A DNA stretch of 64,000 bases from a virus. Each line of letters begins with the position of its first letter. Position 1 is the stretch's first letter. The notes below the pieces were generated by a model that was not told the DNA's origin, ran no database searches, and saw nothing but the letters and a program-made list of their open reading frames with translations. The DNA lies in the IMG/VR virus record IMGVR_UViG_3300029258_001212, positions 89,541-153,540 of that record; one strand, written 5' to 3'. Both the position numbers and the translations under genes were made by a program. Positions 11,349-40,218 of the stretch are shown piece by piece.

Positions 11349-11761
11349 TGGCTGACTCCCCGTTCTTCCAGCCCGATTGCGTGTGCTCGGATGTGATCAA
11401 CCTCTACAAGAACCGGGATCGCACCATCCGGTTCACCATCACCAATGACGATGTGGGTGATATTACGGGCGCCTTGATCTGGTTCTCTGTGAAAAAAGAG
11501 GTGACCGACACCGACAGCGAGGCGGTGATCACCAAGAAGTCCGCTGGCATCACTGGTGGCGACGATTCCCAAGCCAAGGTGGTGGACGGCGTGGCCAGGA
11601 TCATCGAAGTCTACATCCTGCCAGCGGACACCGTGGACCTGGACGCTGGCGGCTACGTGTCGGACGCAGTGATCCAGCTCCCCACCGGGCGGAAGCTCCA
11701 GCTCAAGGACCCCTTCCGGTTCAACGTCCAGCAACCGGCCACCCTCGCGGAGACCCCATGA
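11348..11761 (+). CDS. BppU-like baseplate upper/adaptor domain protein
   Basis: DITGALIWFSVK...I.PADT..L..G.YVSD pattern. Confidence 0.55.
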   Translation: MADSPFFQPDCVCSDVINLYKNRDRTIRFTITNDDVGDITGALIWFSVKKEVTDTDSEAVITKKSAGITGGDDSQAKVVDGVARIIEVYILPADTVDLDAGGYVSDAVIQLPTGRKLQLKDPFRFNVQQPATLAETP

Positions 11762-12180
11762 GCCAGATCCTCACCGAAGCGGAGCTTGAGCTCGCCCTGG
11801 CGGCCCAACAGGCCCAGCTAGAGGCCAAGGTGGCCCTCGCGGACCATGAGGTGGCCTACCAGGGCACCAAGGCCGAGCTAGTGGACCGGGTGAAGGCTAC
11901 TACTGAGGCGCGCCAGCACGCCCTGGCGGCCATCCTACAGGCCCGTGGGCTTGACCCCCGCGAGTGGACGATCAACGTCGCTACGCAGGAGGTGGAGCCC
12001 GCTGGGGCGCCGTCCACGGGGCTCCTGGGTGGCCTGGGCGAGGTGCTACTGGAACAGGGCCAGGATCGGCCCTTTCGACCCCTGAGCTCCGAGGAGGAGC
12101 TCGAGCGCGGGCGCGGTGGCGCGGTGGCAGCGGTGCGCCTCACGCGACCTGGAAACGGAGGCCACGATGACAGGGACTGA
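11758..12180 (+). CDS. Hypothetical protein (coiled coil, possible fibre chaperone)
   Basis: ATGA overlap, helical. Confidence 0.6.
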   Translation: MSQILTEAELELALAAQQAQLEAKVALADHEVAYQGTKAELVDRVKATTEARQHALAAILQARGLDPREWTINVATQEVEPAGAPSTGLLGGLGEVLLEQGQDRPFRPLSSEEELERGRGGAVAAVRLTRPGNGGHDDRD

Positions 12181-12670
12181 ACGGCGCGGGATCGCCTTGA
12201 TCCTGGTGACCACGATGCTCACGATGGCCACCTTGGCGTGCGCCCCCCAGGTGCAGACGGCCAAGCGGGCGCCCATCTTCGAGAAAGCCCAGGAGCTATC
12301 CAAGCTCCCGGCCCGGGTGGAGAAGCCGGCCAAAAAGACCGGCACGGTGGTGGCTGTCCGCAAGGGTGACCAGGTGCCCTTCGATGGCATCCTACTCACC
12401 GAGGACCGGGCGAAAAAAGCGGCCCAGCTCCGAATTTCCTACGATGAGCTGTACGATATTGCGACGATCAACCGGCGCTTCACCGGTGTGGCTCTCCGGG
12501 CGGCAGATGAGCAGCTCGCGGCGGCCGACAAGGAGATCGCCAGGCTTCGCAAGGCCCAGGACTCCTGGTGGAACCGGCACAAGCTCACTGTGGGCATCGT
12601 GATCGGCACCATCCTCACGCTCGGACTCGGGGGCCTCGCGGTGTGGGGCGCCAGCGAGCTCAAGAAGTAG
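12167..12670 (+). CDS. Lipoprotein with C-terminal TM (spanin-like)
   Basis: GGAGG SD; lipobox TLAC; coiled coil; C-terminal TM VGIVIGTILTLGLGGLAVW. Confidence 0.65.
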   Translation: MTGTERRGIALILVTTMLTMATLACAPQVQTAKRAPIFEKAQELSKLPARVEKPAKKTGTVVAVRKGDQVPFDGILLTEDRAKKAAQLRISYDELYDIATINRRFTGVALRAADEQLAAADKEIARLRKAQDSWWNRHKLTVGIVIGTILTLGLGGLAVWGASELKK

Positions 12671-12700
12671 CAGCCTTTCCCTTACTTTCCCTTATCCCTC

Positions 12701-12730
12701 TTGTGTCGGGTGCCCTGGTAGGGTAATTGT
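12701..12730 (+). promoter_or_regulatory. Possible sigma70-like promoter for the structured leader
   Basis: TTGTGT-17 bp-TAATTG(T); shares GGTAGGGTA with promoter at 40219. Confidence 0.35.
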
Positions 12731-12954
12731 AGAAGCTCGGGTGGTAGCGGCTGCCCGACAGCGGACGCGGGGGCGGTTCCTGCGATGCCTCGGTGGTCAG
12801 TTCGGTTGCCATGGCCCTCCCCCATCCCCGCGCCCAAGCCGCGAGGTGGCTCGCTCCCCTGTGATGGCTGCAAGGCTGGGCCGGAGGGCAGCTCGAGAAA
12901 CCGGCCCCGGCGGAGGCATTGAATCCGCCGCTTTTCGCCCAGGAGGAGACGGTG

Positions 12955-12983
12955 TTGACAGTCAGATCTGGCCAAAGTACCCT
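12955..12983 (+). promoter_or_regulatory. Sigma70 promoter internal to leader
   Basis: TTGACA-17 bp-TACCCT. Confidence 0.5.
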
Positions 12984-13016
12984 GTCCGCAAAGCTGTGTT
13001 TCGTCACGGCTCCCTC

Positions 13017-13065
13017 GGACTGGTCGGGCAGCCCCCCAACACCCCCCCTGGCCAGTCCTTTTTTT
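13017..13065 (+). terminator. Intrinsic terminator (long loop)
   Basis: GGACTGGTCGGG/CCTGGCCAGTCC 12-bp stem followed by T7. Confidence 0.6.
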
Positions 13066-13092
13066 GTCCAGCGACACGATTGGAGGTACGTG

Positions 13093-13839
13093 ATGGGTCG
13101 CTCTGCGATTGAGTGGACGGACTACTCATGGAGCCCTGTGACCGGGTGTTCGATGGTCTCCACGGGGTGCCGTAACTGCTACGCGAAACGGATGGCCGAG
13201 CAGTTCCAGCGGGACGGCAAGGCGCGCTACAGGTACGGGTTCAAGCCGACGATCCACCCGGATGTGCTCGAGGAGCCGCTGGGGTGGAAAACGAGTCGGC
13301 TCATCTTCGTGTGCAGCATGAGCGATCTGTTCCACGAGGACGTTCCTTTCGAGTTCTTGGAGCGCGTGTTCGCCATCATGCGGCGGACCCCGCGGCACAC
13401 CTACCAGGTGCTCACGAAGCGAGCGGAGCGGATGCGCGAGCTCGGCAACAAGATCGGCTGGCCGAGCAACATCTGGGCTGGCGTGACCGTGGAGCATCCC
13501 CGGTACGTGAAGCGGCGCATCCCCGAGCTCCTTGACACCGAGGCGCGGCTCCGATTCGTCTCCTTTGAGCCCCTGGTGGCCGAAATCGGCCCGTTCGATT
13601 TCACGGGCATCGACTGGGTGATCGTGGGTGGTGAACGGGGGAGCCGGGTGCGCCCCATGGACGAGGCATGGGCCCTGGACCTACTACGCCAGGCCCGCGC
13701 GGCCGGCGTGCCGTTCTTTTTCAAGCAACGCGGCGATGCGGCTGGGATCATGGGCTACCGGGACCAGCTCCTCGGGGGCAAGAAAATCCAGGAGCTCCCC
13801 GAGCAAGCTGGCAACCAACCCAGCCTGTTTGACCTGTGA
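13093..13839 (+). CDS. DUF5131 / phage Gp37-Gp68 family radical-SAM-like protein
   Basis: SAIEWTD.SWSPVTGC..VS.GC.NCYA, FVCSMSDLFH, LTKR, SFEPL, WVIVGGE, FFFKQ. Confidence 0.92.
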   Translation: MGRSAIEWTDYSWSPVTGCSMVSTGCRNCYAKRMAEQFQRDGKARYRYGFKPTIHPDVLEEPLGWKTSRLIFVCSMSDLFHEDVPFEFLERVFAIMRRTPRHTYQVLTKRAERMRELGNKIGWPSNIWAGVTVEHPRYVKRRIPELLDTEARLRFVSFEPLVAEIGPFDFTGIDWVIVGGERGSRVRPMDEAWALDLLRQARAAGVPFFFKQRGDAAGIMGYRDQLLGGKKIQELPEQAGNQPSLFDL

Positions 13840-13939
13840 GCCCTTTGTCTGCTACGTTGACGGGTGCGCGCCTGGAGGGGCGCTGGAAGGCTTGCCAGGC
13901 TCTCCGGTCTCCTCTGCGAGAAGCTCCCCGGCCAGGCAT

Positions 13940-13978
13940 GAATCCCCGTCTGCAATAGCAGCGGGGATTCGACTTTTT
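13940..13978 (+). terminator. Hairpin (terminator-like) just before the MTase SD
   Basis: GAATCCCCG(T)CTGC-AATA-GCAG-CGGGGATTC then GACTTTTT. Confidence 0.45.
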
Positions 13979-13988
13979 GGAGGCCACG

Positions 13989-14702
13989 ATGATTGAACGA
14001 TTGGAATCCTCCCCCCTCTGGTGCGCGTGGGACGTGGTGTGCTGTGACGCTGTGACGTTCCTCCGCCAGCTCCCGGACGCCTCGGTGGACCTGGCGATCA
14101 CGGACCCGCCCTACGAGTCCCTTGAGAAGCATCGCAAGAAAGGCACCACCACGCGCCTGAAGGTGTCCAAGGCGAGCTCCAACGCCTGGTTCAAGACGTT
14201 CCCCAACGCGCGGTTCCCAGAGCTCCTGGCAGAGCTCAGGCGCGTCCTGAAGCGCGACCGGCACTGCTACATCTTCGTGGACCAGGAGACCATGTTCGCC
14301 TTGCGCCCCGTGGCAGAGGCAGCCGGGTTCAAGTGGTGGAAGGCGCTGGTGTGGGACAAGGTGGCCATCGGGATGGGCTACCACTACCGGGCCCGCTTCG
14401 AGCACATCGCCTTCCTCGAGCTGGGCAGGCGCAAGCTCAACGATCTGGGCGTACCAGACGTTCTCCAGGTCAAGCGCGTCTGGCGGGGCATCCCCGCGGA
14501 GAAGCCCGTGGAGCTGATGGAGGTGCTGGTCCGACAGAGCACCAGGCCCGGTGAGCTGGTGGTGGACCCCTTCCTGGGCTCCGGGGCCTCGGGTCAGGCA
14601 GCCGTGAAGCTCGGGCGCCGGTTCCTTGGATCTGACCTGAATCCAGAATTAGTGCAAGAATCCACAGATCGGATTTGCGGCGCTTCTGCCATCCCCATGT
14701 AG
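13989..14702 (+). CDS. DNA N6-adenine/N4-cytosine methyltransferase (beta class)
   Basis: DPPY catalytic motif before P.EKP and VVDPFLGSG SAM-binding motif. Confidence 0.92.
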   Translation: MIERLESSPLWCAWDVVCCDAVTFLRQLPDASVDLAITDPPYESLEKHRKKGTTTRLKVSKASSNAWFKTFPNARFPELLAELRRVLKRDRHCYIFVDQETMFALRPVAEAAGFKWWKALVWDKVAIGMGYHYRARFEHIAFLELGRRKLNDLGVPDVLQVKRVWRGIPAEKPVELMEVLVRQSTRPGELVVDPFLGSGASGQAAVKLGRRFLGSDLNPELVQESTDRICGASAIPM

Positions 14703-14737
14703 TGTGCCTGGCGGACTGAAACCACTACATCTGGTAG
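14690..14737. promoter_or_regulatory. Possible tandem NrdR boxes
   Basis: CCACTACATCTGGTAG (14722) fits acaCwAtATaTwGtgt; weaker CATCCCCATGTAGTGT starts 32 bp upstream. Confidence 0.4.
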
Positions 14738-14754
14738 TCGGTTTTTGACCATCT

Positions 14755-14842
14755 GGAAGTTTTCTTCTACATGGTCAGGAAGTTTTCTTCTACATGGTCA
14801 GGAAGTTTTCTTCTACATGGTCAGGAAGTTTTCTTCCTGACC
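14755..14842. repeat. Iteron-like array (3 x 23 bp) ending in a palindrome; putative replication origin
   Basis: GGAAGTTTTCTTCTACATGGTCA at 14755, 14778 and 14801; GGTCAGGAAG-TTTT-CTTCCTGACC at 14819-14842; AT-rich flank. Confidence 0.85.
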
Positions 14843-15056
14843 TATATGGAAGTATATGCAGAGAAAAAGATGCAGAGAAGCAGAGCGGGGCTGGGCGCCC
14901 CGGCTGCCAGGTGCTCCGATGACAGCTCTCTGACGGCGGCTCACCTGGCACGAAAATTGACCACCGAGTTTTGGACTGAAAGAAGTTGACCGGCCGTTTC
15001 GCCCCGTGATATGCCTGGACTCCTGGCAAGCCTTTCTGACTCACGAGGAGAACCAA

Positions 15057-16466
15057 ATGGCGAAGATCGAGCTGACGTTAAAGCGGACATACCGCCCCCA
15101 CTGGGGGGTTCCGGAGGCAGTCCGGGAGTTCCTTCAAAATTGGTTGGACGGGGGAGACAAGGGGTTCACGAAGTCCATGCGCCGGGACGGCGACTGGTTG
15201 GTGCTCCGCAACGAAGAGGTGGTGCTTCCGCGTGAGGCGCTCCTCCTCGGGTTCACCACGAAGGCGACGGACGCGGATTCACGCGGCCAGTGGGGCGAGG
15301 GGCTCGACATGGGGCTCCTGGTGGCCACCCGGTCCGGGCTGGACGTGGTGGTCTACACGGGCGCGGAGCGGTGGGCCCCGAAGCTGGTCCAGAGCGCATC
15401 GTTCGCAGACGAGGTGCTCGCGGTGTTCACGCGCCAGGTGCGGGACCGCGCCGGCACGGAAGTCCACCTGCGGATCTCTGAGGAGGAATGGGCCGAGCTC
15501 CAGTGGCGCTTCCTCGAGCTCCAGCCGGCGGAGGAGACCACCCCGGGCAGCAGAGGCCAGATCATCTTCGATGCGGACAGGCGCGGGTGCGTGTACGTCA
15601 AGGGGATCTTCGTGTCCAAGATGGATGACCTACAGCACGGCTATGATTTCGAGCACGCGCATGTGGACCTGGATCGGATGCTGGTCAGTGGCTTCGATGT
15701 GCGCTGGGAGGCGGCCATGCTGTGGGAGACCGCCATCAGCCGGTCGCCCAGTCGCAACGGGCGCGCCGCGTGGGAAATGCTCAAGTCCGAGAAGCCGGAC
15801 GTGGCCGGCCTCGGAAGTCGCCTACAGCGCAACCCCAACCCCCAGGTGGCCAGGGCCGTGGCGGAGGTGTTTAAGGCGGAGCATGGCGCGGACGCTCTCC
15901 CGGCAGCCGACGACCACCAGATGCAGAAGATCGAACATCTAGGTCGCAAGCCCGTGCGGGTGTCCAGGTCCGCGGCAGATGTGCTCGAGGCCCATTACGG
16001 TCAGTTCCACGTGATGCTCAACAAGGTGGCCAAGGCGGAAAAGGTGGCGGTGGCCACGGCCGAGCTCACCGAGCTCGAGCGCCAGGTGGTGTTCCGAGGG
16101 GTGCGCCTGGTGGAGCTCGCCATGGACGGACTCAAGTGGAGCCGGGGCTACCAGGAGCTCCTCGCCGGGCTGGACGTGGTGGAGTACGCAGACGATCAGA
16201 TACTGGGTACGTGGGAGCGCGAATCGCGCCGCATTGGTGTGTCGCGCCGTGTGCTCAATGATGTGCCAGAGTTCCTGGGGACCTACCTCCACGAGCTGGC
16301 CCACGATTTGACCGAAGCTGTGGACGGCACCCGCATTCACATCAGCGTGGCTGAGTACCTGTGGGTGCGCTGCATGAGGGTGGTGCTGGAACGCTTCGGG
16401 ATGGAGTGGCTGGATGAGCGTGCAGACGATGGGGCCGAAGTGCGGGATCTGCGACAAGGCGGTTAG
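15057..16466 (+). CDS. GHKL-type ATPase fused to HExxH zincin-like domain
   Basis: EAVREFLQNWLD, G.TTK...RGQWGEGL (GHKL motifs); YLHELAH near C-terminus. Confidence 0.75.
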   Translation: MAKIELTLKRTYRPHWGVPEAVREFLQNWLDGGDKGFTKSMRRDGDWLVLRNEEVVLPREALLLGFTTKATDADSRGQWGEGLDMGLLVATRSGLDVVVYTGAERWAPKLVQSASFADEVLAVFTRQVRDRAGTEVHLRISEEEWAELQWRFLELQPAEETTPGSRGQIIFDADRRGCVYVKGIFVSKMDDLQHGYDFEHAHVDLDRMLVSGFDVRWEAAMLWETAISRSPSRNGRAAWEMLKSEKPDVAGLGSRLQRNPNPQVARAVAEVFKAEHGADALPAADDHQMQKIEHLGRKPVRVSRSAADVLEAHYGQFHVMLNKVAKAEKVAVATAELTELERQVVFRGVRLVELAMDGLKWSRGYQELLAGLDVVEYADDQILGTWERESRRIGVSRRVLNDVPEFLGTYLHELAHDLTEAVDGTRIHISVAEYLWVRCMRVVLERFGMEWLDERADDGAEVRDLRQGG

Positions 16467-20808: not shown

Positions 20809-22075
20809 CCTGGATATGGCCCTGGTGTCGTCTCTTCTGATGGGGGGCAGGAGCGCCCTGAAGGTGGCGCGCGACTCCGGAATCACTGCCGAGCTTCTGA
20901 GCGGTTCAAGCGCGAAGCAGGTGTTCGATTTCATCGAAGCTCACACCCGTGAGCACCGGGAGCTCCCAAGCGAGGAGCTGGTGGTGTCCAAGTTCGGGGT
21001 GAGGCTACCCGAGGTGAAGGATTCGCTGCCAGTGCTGGTGAGCGAGATCCGCGACCGTCACCTGTGGCAGCTCCAAGGGACCTTCCTGGGGGACTTCGAG
21101 AAGCTGGTGAACGGGCGCACCCCTCACGAGGCCCACGCGGCGGTGGAGGAGTACCAGCGCCAGGTGCGCCAGGCGCAGATGGTGGGCAGCAAGGTGGAGT
21201 CCCTTTTCGACTATGCCGAAGGGGTGATCCAAGCCTACCTGGACGCCAAGGACGGCAAGCTGGGCATCAGAACCTACTGGCCCACCCTGGACGATTCGAC
21301 TCGCGGGTGGTGGCCGGAGGACTTTGTGGTGATCGCGGCCCGGCCCAAGACGGGCAAGACCTGGGTGCTCCTGATGATGGCCCACCAGGCGTGGAAGGAT
21401 GGCGCCAGCGTCCTGGTGATCTCCACAGAGATGAGCCGGGCACGGCTCCTCCGGCGCTTCGTGGCCCTCGAGCTCAAGCTCCCCTACAACGATCTGGTCC
21501 GCGGTGAGCTGGATATGTACGAGGAGGAGCGGTTCCTCGAGGAGACGCGCAAGCTGATCGGTCAGCCCGGGCTCGAGGTGATCGGCGCCGGGTGGCACTA
21601 CACGACGGTGAACGTGGAGGACGCTATCGCCATCACGAAGCCGGATCTGGTGGTGATTGACGGTATGTACCTGATCAAGCCTAGCTCTGGTGGAAACAAC
21701 AGCCGAGAGCGCCTGAGTAATGTGGCGAACGACCTGGTGGAAACAGCGCAGCTCCACGCCGTCCCGATTGTCGGCACCCACCAGTTCAACCGAGAGGTGG
21801 ACCCCAACGATCTATCCACCGGGCGCCTGGAGAACCTGGGCGGATCGGACGTGATCGGCTGGAACGTCTCGGCCGCGTTTGCCCTACTCCAGACCGATGA
21901 CATGCGTGAGGACCGTCAGATGATCATCCGTCCGATGGCCCTCCGCGAGTCCGGTGCAATGGACGATGTGGTGATTGACTGGGACCTGTCCAGGATGAGC
22001 TTCGGTGAGCTCGGTGGGGAGGCGGAGCTCGAGGCGGGCGAGCCCGGCGCGGCCGGTCAAGAGGTGCCGTTCTGA
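20795..22075 (+). CDS. dnaB: DnaB-like replicative helicase
   Basis: AARPKTGKT, ISTEMS, VVIDGMYL, HQFNR. Confidence 0.92.
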   Translation: MPVLDLDMALVSSLLMGGRSALKVARDSGITAELLSGSSAKQVFDFIEAHTREHRELPSEELVVSKFGVRLPEVKDSLPVLVSEIRDRHLWQLQGTFLGDFEKLVNGRTPHEAHAAVEEYQRQVRQAQMVGSKVESLFDYAEGVIQAYLDAKDGKLGIRTYWPTLDDSTRGWWPEDFVVIAARPKTGKTWVLLMMAHQAWKDGASVLVISTEMSRARLLRRFVALELKLPYNDLVRGELDMYEEERFLEETRKLIGQPGLEVIGAGWHYTTVNVEDAIAITKPDLVVIDGMYLIKPSSGGNNSRERLSNVANDLVETAQLHAVPIVGTHQFNREVDPNDLSTGRLENLGGSDVIGWNVSAAFALLQTDDMREDRQMIIRPMALRESGAMDDVVIDWDLSRMSFGELGGEAELEAGEPGAAGQEVPF

Positions 22076-23073
22076 TGCGTGAGCTGGACCTGATCTCTGT
22101 GCTCGAGCAGTGCGGATGCAGGCGCATCCGGACTTATGGCGAAGAGGTGCGCTCGACGTGTCCAGACGAGGCCAGCCACAGCCGTGGCATGGATCGGAAT
22201 CCATCGTTTTCAGCGCGCATCAATCCGGACGGCTACTCCCCCTACTTCTGCCAGGCGTGCGGGCTCAAGGGGACGGTGGAGTTCCTCGCGCTGGAACATG
22301 GGATGCCCCAGTACATGCCCGAGAAAGGGCGCAAGTACGATCCGGAGGATTGGTTCCCTGCGGAGAACCGAGAGCTGTGGGGTGGCGATGAGGAGACCTG
22401 TATCCTGATGCCTCCAGAGGAGCTCCTCCGGCGGTTCCAGGGTGGCATTCCGCGCTACTTGGTGGAGCGTGGCGTGGAGCTCGAGACGGCGAAGCGGTGG
22501 GAGCTCGGATTCGACCGGGAGTTCAAGCGGGCGATGTTCACGATTCGGGATCGCCTTGGGCGTTTCCGCGGTGTGTGCGGGCGTGCATTGTTCAAGCAAC
22601 AGAAGCCGAAGTATTGCCACTACTCATGGGACACCAGGGAGGAAAAGCTGGTGCCGTGGGTGGACTACAACCGGTACAAGGAATTCCTGCGAGTTGAGAA
22701 GCGCCTGATCTGCTACGGCGAGCACATGGTGAAAGTGCCAGCGAAGCGGCTCCTGGTCACCGAGGGGCACCTGGACGTGGTGCTGAGTGACCAGGCGGGG
22801 GTTCCGGCGGTGGGGCTCCAGGGGAGCAAGCCGAGCGATGAGCAAGTGGAGACGATTCTCGAGCTCCTGGACCGTGATGGCGAGCTGGTGGTGGGGTTGG
22901 ACCAGGACCAGTACGGCCGGGAAGGCAGGGATGAGCTGATCGCCAAGCTGGACGGACGGGTCCCCCTGTTTGACCCCAGGTTTCCAGAGGGCAAGGACCC
23001 AGCGGACCTGGTGCTCGAGGACCCAGGCGCCTACTGCGAGTTGGTGGCATCGGCGCGGGTGATTCAATGTTGA
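22075..23073 (+). CDS. DnaG-type primase (Zn-binding and TOPRIM)
   Basis: CP..H...CQAC; VTEGHLD; GLDQDQYG; KDPAD. Confidence 0.9.
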   Translation: MRELDLISVLEQCGCRRIRTYGEEVRSTCPDEASHSRGMDRNPSFSARINPDGYSPYFCQACGLKGTVEFLALEHGMPQYMPEKGRKYDPEDWFPAENRELWGGDEETCILMPPEELLRRFQGGIPRYLVERGVELETAKRWELGFDREFKRAMFTIRDRLGRFRGVCGRALFKQQKPKYCHYSWDTREEKLVPWVDYNRYKEFLRVEKRLICYGEHMVKVPAKRLLVTEGHLDVVLSDQAGVPAVGLQGSKPSDEQVETILELLDRDGELVVGLDQDQYGREGRDELIAKLDGRVPLFDPRFPEGKDPADLVLEDPGAYCELVASARVIQC

Positions 23074-23107
23074 CAAAGCTGGTGGACACTGTATTTTGGA
23101 GTGTCCG
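23070..23107 (+). promoter_or_regulatory. Sigma70 promoter with a dyad overlapping the -10
   Basis: TTGACA-16 bp-TATTTT; GGACACT...AGTGTCC inverted repeat. Confidence 0.55.
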
Positions 23108-23152
23108 TTTTTCGCAATACCTGGATGAAAGAGAACAACAAGGAGAACAACG

Positions 23153-39994: not shown

Positions 39995-40218
39995 GACCCA
40001 CTACGCTTGCCCCTTGGCGACTTGTGGTGCTCATTACAACTCGCCAAAAAAAATCATGTCCATGTCGTTTTTTTGGCCGAGTGAGATCACTCGACCGTAA
40101 TCACTAACATTTTTGATATTCAGTTGCAGGGCCAAACAGGGCTCAACCTGTGGGCGCAGCGGCGCAAGTGCGTGACACTACAGTAGTAAAGCAGTGTACT
40201 GGTAGACGTGTTGACGTG

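Follow-up and report, generated by a model that had tools for sequence, protein, structure and literature searches.

Results

A 422-nt spacer separates a spanin-like gene from a DUF5131 gene

The locus lies in an uncultured phage represented by a 153,540-bp IMG/VR record of 64% G+C that carries direct terminal repeats, and the window that we analysed is the 64,000-nt stretch comprising bases 89541-153540 of this record (coordinates below are those of the window). Four runs (X1-X4), from sediment or seawater samples, contain this phage at full identity, and no RNA run was listed as containing the stretch. Our subject was the 422-nt spacer at 12671-13092, which has a spanin-like membrane gene on its 5' side and a gene of the DUF5131 family on its 3' side; a DNA methyltransferase gene follows, and all three genes are encoded on the + strand (Table 1). 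The upstream protein had no family match in Pfam, PHROG, or NCBIfam. Its four homologues, at 66-97% identity (66-71% for three of them, P0004, P0005, and P0006), all share the same Met start, and by its layout the protein is possibly a unimolecular spanin. The DUF5131 protein additionally matched the rSAM mobile pair protein A family, below the cut-off. The gap between the DUF5131 and methyltransferase genes (137 nt; 13840-13976) is conserved.

Because DUF5131 is absent from a distant relative of 185 kb (L091), where a small ORF directly follows the spanin-like gene instead, the DUF5131/methyltransferase pair is an accessory cassette. We found no counterpart in the spacer for the proteins that this relative encodes beside its spanin-like gene.

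Table 1. Features of the spacer and its surroundings, in window coordinates. Substitutions are counted against the relative L002.
Feature	Position	Strand	Details
Upstream gene	12167-12670	+	167-aa membrane protein; N-terminal signal/lipobox-like ...(L/W)AC; C-terminal transmembrane helix
Conserved non-coding block	12671-12830	+	1 substitution/160 nt; P = 5e-7
Hairpin (i)	12737-45/12750-58	+	9 pairs, 3 of them G-U; loop AGCG; -12.7 kcal/mol
Helix (ii), 5' arm	12749-12759	+	Perfect 11-bp inverted repeat; partner 13023-13033
Variable GC-rich filler with most of the nested helices	12831-12954	+	10 substitutions/124 nt (8.1%); P = 0.25
Conserved 3' block	12955-13092	+	1 substitution/138 nt plus two homopolymer indels; P = 5e-6
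Sigma-70-type promoter candidate	12955-12983	+	TTGACA 12955-60; 17-nt spacer; TACCCT 12978-83
Leader hairpin 1	12993-13010	+	6 pairs; loop UUUCGU; pair probability 1.0
Terminator-like stem-loop (iii)	13017-13058	+	12 pairs, 2 of them G-U; 18-nt loop of C and A only; -19.8 kcal/mol
T7 tract directly after the stem	13059-13065	+	T8 in L002
Ribosome site and DUF5131 start codon	13082-13095	+	GGAGG 13082-86; ATG 13093-95; Pfam DUF5131 match starts at residue 4
DUF5131 gene (Gp37/Gp68-type, radical-SAM-related)	13093-13839	+	PF07505, E = 1.7e-86; phrog_2045
Second unit of the same layout	13829-13988	+	TTGACC-N18-(TGc)TACGTT, structured leader, hairpin, T5, and GGAGG, before ATG 13989
N6/N4 DNA methyltransferase gene	ATG 13989, end 14702	+	PF01555, E = 4.8e-28

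The spacer is non-coding and conserved in two blocks

Several lines of evidence indicate that the spacer (12671-13092) is non-coding. The flanking genes have a third-position G+C of 0.8-0.95, and this GC3 phase is absent over 12680-13090. When compared with L002, a full-length relative (one 153,114-bp contig, also labelled L010 and L011), substitutions in the flanking genes fell mainly at codon position 3 (14/17, 18/24, 11/16, 25/36, and 29/44; by codon position, 1/4/11 in the spanin-like gene), while those in the spacer did not pile up at any one codon position. In addition, two 1-nt insertions in L002, one in the C-run of the terminator loop and one in the T-run, disrupt every frame through 13041-13058.

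Coding readings of the spacer were considered and rejected. The + strand ORF at 12741-13112 and the - strand ORF at 12682-13077, the two longest in the spacer, have neither a Pfam/PHROG family nor GC3 phase, and GC3 phase is also missing from the - strand ORF at 12660-13007; the translations of all three are rich in Arg, Gly, and Pro. In a 45-aa ORF (12785-12922), all four changes in L002 are non-synonymous (4/4), and an N-terminal extension of DUF5131 from TTG 12955 would have its frame broken by both of the L002 indels.

We measured conservation against this one relative, whose spacer is 96.7% identical in a genome at 97% identity, and divergence is mosaic along the phage (3-9% per gene). 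With nearby third codon positions as the neutral yardstick (10.3% against L002), the spacer divided into two conserved blocks around a variable centre (Table 1). The conservation of the blocks persisted when the lowest local rate was used (P about 3e-4 for 12671-12830 and 1e-3 for 12955-13092), and the difference in substitutions between centre and flanks was marked (Fisher P = 1.4e-4). The centre (12831-12954) evolves at the neutral rate. The AT-richer gap after the methyltransferase gene (14703-15005) also differs from L002 about as much as neutral sites do (9.6%), whereas its two neighbouring gaps are conserved.

Immediately after the stop codon of the spanin-like gene, the first conserved block carries a perfect tandem repeat, CTTTCCCTTA x2, at 12675-94. 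In run X8, a metagenome variant carries T>A at position 2 of each CTTTCCCTTA copy, and this concerted change suggests a paired binding site or slippage. Among the variant sites listed from contigs of four runs, two metagenome runs showed changes at 12676, 12686, 12697, 12699, and 12801, and none of the listed sites fell in the arms of helices (i)-(iii).

We also searched for related leaders elsewhere. In blastn and nhmmer searches of 90 loci, the spacer matched only its own copy (L001) and L002/L010/L011; nothing similar was found upstream of DUF5131 in the other 87 loci, 86 of which had been obtained through DUF5131 (28-52% identity). A search of a phage collection with blastn in distant mode returned no match to the spacer. 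In protein-guided scans of viral and metagenome contigs, together with a DNA pattern scan, one contig only was found to carry it.

The 3' third of the spacer holds a promoter candidate followed by a terminator-like hairpin

The 3' conserved block opens with a sigma-70-type promoter candidate whose -35 box matches the consensus at 6/6 positions and whose -10 box matches at 3/6 (T1, A2, and T6), under sigma-70 rules that are borrowed and may not be those of the host. A consensus scan did not call this site because only 3/6 positions of its -10 box match. Perfect TTGACA-N16-18-TAnnnT sites occur twice in the 153-kb genome (307 kb over both strands), each time at a gene boundary. Relative to L002, the promoter candidate has zero substitutions. 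From its position, we infer that transcription starts near the purine A12990. Given a near-consensus -35 box and 17-nt spacing inside what had been proposed as a single long leader, the likeliest RNA would therefore be one of 76 nt (12990-13065), which lacks the upstream strand that could compete with the hairpin.

Folded on its own, this 76-nt RNA reached -30.9 kcal/mol compared with -19.5 ± 2.7 for shuffles (z = -4.3; bounds picked after the fold had been seen), with a terminator probability of 1.00 and no alternative fold. The first of its two hairpins has an energy of -7.4 kcal/mol (z = -3.6). The second is specific to the + strand RNA, since two of its pairs are G-U, and it is the sole hairpin of its class in the genome. 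In L002 the stem of this second hairpin is unchanged and the loop is one C longer (19 nt). The genome holds 19 runs of T6 or longer and five of T7 or longer, all five outside called coding sequence (the run at 13059-65 had been flagged as lying in a gene only through an over-long ORF call), and the run at 13059-65 is the sole one of T7 or longer, genome-wide, that adjoins a strong stem.

Loops of intrinsic terminators are usually 3-8 nt. The hairpin at 13017-58 has the G+C-rich stem and the gapless U-tract of such terminators but not the short loop; at 18 nt its loop is outside the usual range, and the efficiency of termination may therefore be low. The loop (18 nt here and 19 in L002) is also the reason that a terminator scan did not list this hairpin. 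An earlier sequence-only reading of this DNA had proposed a leader ending in a terminator upstream of the radical-SAM-like DUF5131 gene, and this part of it stands: the 12-bp stem (13017-28 with 13047-58), its 18-nt loop, and the T7 tract are present as described, with the hairpin and T7 27 nt before the DUF5131 start codon. The same reading had listed the 18-nt loop as a caveat, which our analysis confirms.

A second unit of the same layout precedes the methyltransferase gene

Promoter-like boxes, a structured leader, a hairpin, a T-run, and a ribosome site recur in this order ahead of the methyltransferase gene (Table 1). The -35 box of this second unit, TTGACC (13829-34), overlaps the DUF5131 stop codon; its 13-bp hairpin lies at 13940-70, and its T5 run (13974-78) is fused to GGAGG (13979-83). 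Compared with L002, the second unit has 1 substitution in 137 nt. The two units have their layout in common but no sequence similarity. At two other sigma-70-like sites, 49146 and 59358, the promoter-like boxes lead straight into ribosome sites with no such hairpin.

Three further regions were noted. The other perfect site, TTGACA-N16-TATTTT within 23070-23112, lies at the end of the gene 22075-23073 and overlaps a hairpin, GGACACT (23084-90)/AGTGTCC (23100-06), which is followed by G and T5, so that it may be a terminator instead of a promoter. A gap of 50% GC contains, at 40053-40068, a minus-strand T8 run opposite a plus-strand T7 run, with hairpins nearby, consistent with a possible two-way terminator between gene blocks. 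Outside the window, G000:C1:20040-20807 is a 768-nt region of 70% GC with no clear frame in a crude gene call, in which the motif GTGGATCCGAC recurs and a G9 run is present. At G000:C1:20232 this region repeats 12900-15 exactly over 16 nt; the repeat was considered as a sign of relationship to the spacer and rejected, as it extends only to a weak 43-nt similarity, and the 16-nt word common to the two is probably due to chance.

Folding of the whole region does not exceed chance

The sequence-only reading had described 12737-13065 as a highly structured leader of about 330 nt, with three mutually exclusive helices and a candidate promoter just upstream. We therefore compared the fold of the entire 329-nt RNA with dinucleotide shuffles and found that it is no more stable than they are (-147.4 kcal/mol vs -145.9 ± 5.6; z = -0.27 for the + strand, compared with -1.07 for the - strand). 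By segment, 12671-12830 folded worse than shuffles (z = +2.6), and 12831-12954 (z = +0.4) and 12735-12835 (z = +0.9) were unremarkable; in 90-nt sliding windows, only 12970-13059 fell below a z of -2. That reading had failed to match the leader by eye to any known RNA, and our Rfam scan agrees: with Rfam 15 at E up to 10, for 2 kb and for the spacer alone, we obtained only chance-level rows far below gathering scores (sar, 17 bits; SorX, 12.3 bits, E = 3.7; MIMT1, 13.9 bits). ARAGORN found neither tRNA nor tmRNA in the window.

The individual helices are nonetheless where they had been placed. Hairpin (i) has its nine pairs, is stable when folded alone (z = -3.0), and is unchanged in L002, and helix (ii) is a perfect 11-bp inverted repeat that joins 12749-59 to 13023-33. 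The complements of the short helices nested between them are likewise all present in the sequence, but in the ensemble of the full RNA the probabilities of CGCGGGG:CCCCGCG, GGGCCGG:CCGGCCC, and CGGCGGA:TCCGCCG are 0-0.01, and that of AGCCGC:GTGGCT is 0.24. Covariation had been named as a check on the structure. Against L002, we found no double changes, and each of three single changes (12831, 12848, and 12930) disrupts a named pair (12767:12831, 12840:12848, and 12908:12930, respectively) with no compensating change, in a comparison that has low power with one relative.

Competition among the three helices is real within the energy model. In the ensemble of the full RNA, (i)+(iii) has a probability of 0.67-0.68 and (ii) of 0.31; the two states are near-isoenergetic (-147.4 vs -145.8 kcal/mol), and in L002 the balance is the opposite (0.35 for (i)+(iii), 0.65 for (ii)). 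The outcome depends on where the transcript begins. With the 5' end at 12737, 12671, and 12600, the probability of helix (ii) is 0.31, 0.83, and 1.00, respectively, and that of the terminator falls from 1.00 (5' end at 12990) to 0.16 (12671) and 0.00 (12600). For 5' ends at 12800 or 12900, which exclude the 12749-59 arm, the terminator is depressed more strongly than in the 329-nt RNA, to a probability of 0.05-0.06. The competition is therefore a general property of a weak-looped hairpin in GC-rich RNA and no sign of design.

Comparison with shuffled sequence supports the same view. Of the shuffles, 2.9-3.9% contain a perfect inverted repeat of at least 11 bp, as do 4.0% of the 422-nt windows of this genome. 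When the terminator was kept and the upstream 280 nt were shuffled, its probability fell as far as with the native sequence in 23% of shuffles. The 5' arm of the terminator does share bases with helix (ii), and the overlap is within chance.

The promoter that had been placed just upstream of hairpin (i) is weak. The consensus scan called none in 11500-15500, and the best site that we could find by eye, an extended -10-like TGnTAGGGT at 12716-24, is expected by chance in about one spacer in seven. A sigma-54 site at about 12716 was considered and rejected; it differs at more than 3 positions from the box of this phage, six perfect copies of which lie inside the window, and matches with up to 3 mismatches are about as frequent as expected (53 found vs 45 expected).

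Taken together, the spacer is best read as a composite non-coding region rather than one folded RNA. The caution that high GC favours chance stems, already attached to the sequence-only reading, proved apt: at 64-67% GC, a rich set of competing helices is the chance expectation, and these helices should therefore not be taken for a new class of riboswitch. The chief value of the analysis is in this negative result.

A proposed promoter-proximal terminator before DUF5131 and the alternatives

The reading that we favour, and to which we give an even chance, is that the 3' third of the spacer is a promoter-proximal intrinsic terminator, acting as an attenuator or insulator before DUF5131, with the 76-nt RNA as its by-product. 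A host sigma-70-type promoter at 12955-83 would start an RNA near 12990, which would fold the small hairpin and then the strong stem-loop with its U7 tail (13017-65). Most transcripts, whether from this promoter or reading through from the spanin-like gene, would stop at 13065 and so release the 76-nt RNA as a by-product of termination, and DUF5131 and the methyltransferase would be expressed, at a low level or conditionally, from the transcripts that pass the terminator. Ahead of the methyltransferase gene this layout is repeated. This model gives no account of the conservation of 12671-12830.

The sequence-only reading had ended on a new cis-regulatory RNA gating read-through or a stand-alone phage ncRNA. 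Because the spacer is non-coding and its hairpin with T7 is conserved far above neutral sites, it is reasonable to see in it a small phage RNA or an element that terminates transcription in cis, and this portion of the proposal survives; there is no evidence for a single switch of about 330 nt built on three mutually exclusive helices.

Unlikely, in our estimate, is that the locus is a plain boundary between gene blocks, at which the hairpin and T7 end the spanin-like operon, the promoter match is weak or due to chance, and the remainder was left by insertion of the cassette. Such a boundary would fit the poor -10 box, the neutral central 124 nt, the lack of the cassette in the distant relative, and the fact that between the stop codon at 12670 and position 13017 there is no other T-run or terminator-like site. 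It fits less well with the 347 nt that separate this stop codon from the terminator, a long gap, or with the conservation of 12671-12830. Moreover, only one substitution (12992) falls in the 62 nt that begin with the -35 box and lead up to the terminator stem, unlike in filler, and the promoter-then-terminator order occurs twice in succession.

We consider it unlikely that 12990-13065 is instead a stand-alone small RNA acting in trans, which would pair through its C-rich loop with G-rich sites (e.g. ribosome sites) on host or phage mRNAs and to which the position of DUF5131 would be incidental. By sequence such an RNA would have a promoter and a terminator of its own; it folds compactly into two hairpins with excess stability and has a loop solely of C and A that is unable to pair internally; the unit is also strongly conserved, and its hairpin class is unique in the genome. 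The loop, however, differs in length between the two relatives by one C and contains no perfect anti-ribosome-site CCUCC. Its sole near-complement in the phage (13/14 at 53812-25) lies within a coding region, away from a start codon, and the SorX match in Rfam is at chance level. The hairpin of the methyltransferase unit has a tetraloop and no such loop, which better fits a role in cis.

A terminator that depends on the 5' end of the transcript is quite improbable. In this model, short RNAs from 12990 would always form the terminator, and long upstream transcripts would mask its 5' arm through 12749-59:13023-33; one element could then make a small RNA and permit read-through without a protein factor. 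We rate it low because the modelled effect is within the range of shuffles and the order of folding is ignored.

Most improbable of all is the switch as first proposed, in which hairpin (i) of a leader of about 330 nt starting at about 12731-37 would free or hold 12749-59, whose pairing with 13023-33, triggered by some ligand or factor, would block terminator formation: it has the topology of an ON-type riboswitch, nearly isoenergetic states, and both arms of helix (ii) within conserved blocks, but it lacks excess stability, an Rfam match, a supported upstream promoter, and a similar leader at the other DUF5131 loci examined, its 11-bp repeat and its competition are matched by chance, the domain that it encloses contains a promoter candidate and a neutral core with three uncompensated breaks, and closure of its 263-nt loop must race a local hairpin that needs only some 30 nt to form.

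If the promoter-proximal terminator reading is true, a large uncultured phage keeps DUF5131 and a methyltransferase behind promoter-proximal terminators. This would be a modest addition to what is known of how phages control the dose or the timing of their DNA-modification genes, and would provide a candidate 76-nt phage RNA.

Comparison with known systems

The pbuE adenine riboswitch and the trp and pyrBI leaders are leader-terminator attenuators or ON-type riboswitches, and the locus resembles them in that an intrinsic terminator would lie between a promoter and a ribosome site. If long transcripts were made, the resemblance to ON-type riboswitches would extend to a closing helix whose 3' strand overlaps the terminator's 5' arm. 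In contrast to these systems, the spacer has no conserved aptamer, leader peptide, excess stability, covariation, or recurrence at homologous genes, and no alternative fold is available to the short RNA that would start at 12990.

The oop RNA of phage lambda is 77 nt long and has its own promoter and terminator. The candidate RNA described here, predicted from sequence alone, is similar in length (about 76 nt), in having its own promoter, and in ending at a terminator hairpin. It differs from oop in having no antisense target at the locus and no sequence or Rfam similarity.

Phage morons, as in HK97 and HK022, are accessory genes with their own promoter and terminator, in the order promoter, gene, terminator. 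The DUF5131 and methyltransferase genes are comparable, being accessory genes missing in a relative, each with a sigma-70-like promoter and a hairpin with a T-run nearby. Here, however, the terminator lies between the promoter and its gene, and transcripts must pass it.

A related arrangement is that of PR'-tR' in lambda, the source of 6S RNA, where an intrinsic terminator, read through by Q antitermination, lies some 100-200 nt or less beyond a sigma-70 promoter. We searched the complete genome for Q-family genes and obtained no match to PF06530 or PF03589, for which controls worked, nor to PF06323, for which there was no working control; neither a Q-binding nor a pause element was identified. 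The genes downstream also differ, being DNA-modification genes rather than a late operon, and the leader is 76 nt. In its order, the locus nevertheless follows PR'-tR': a promoter and then an intrinsic terminator would precede the controlled genes, and a short terminated RNA would be the default product.
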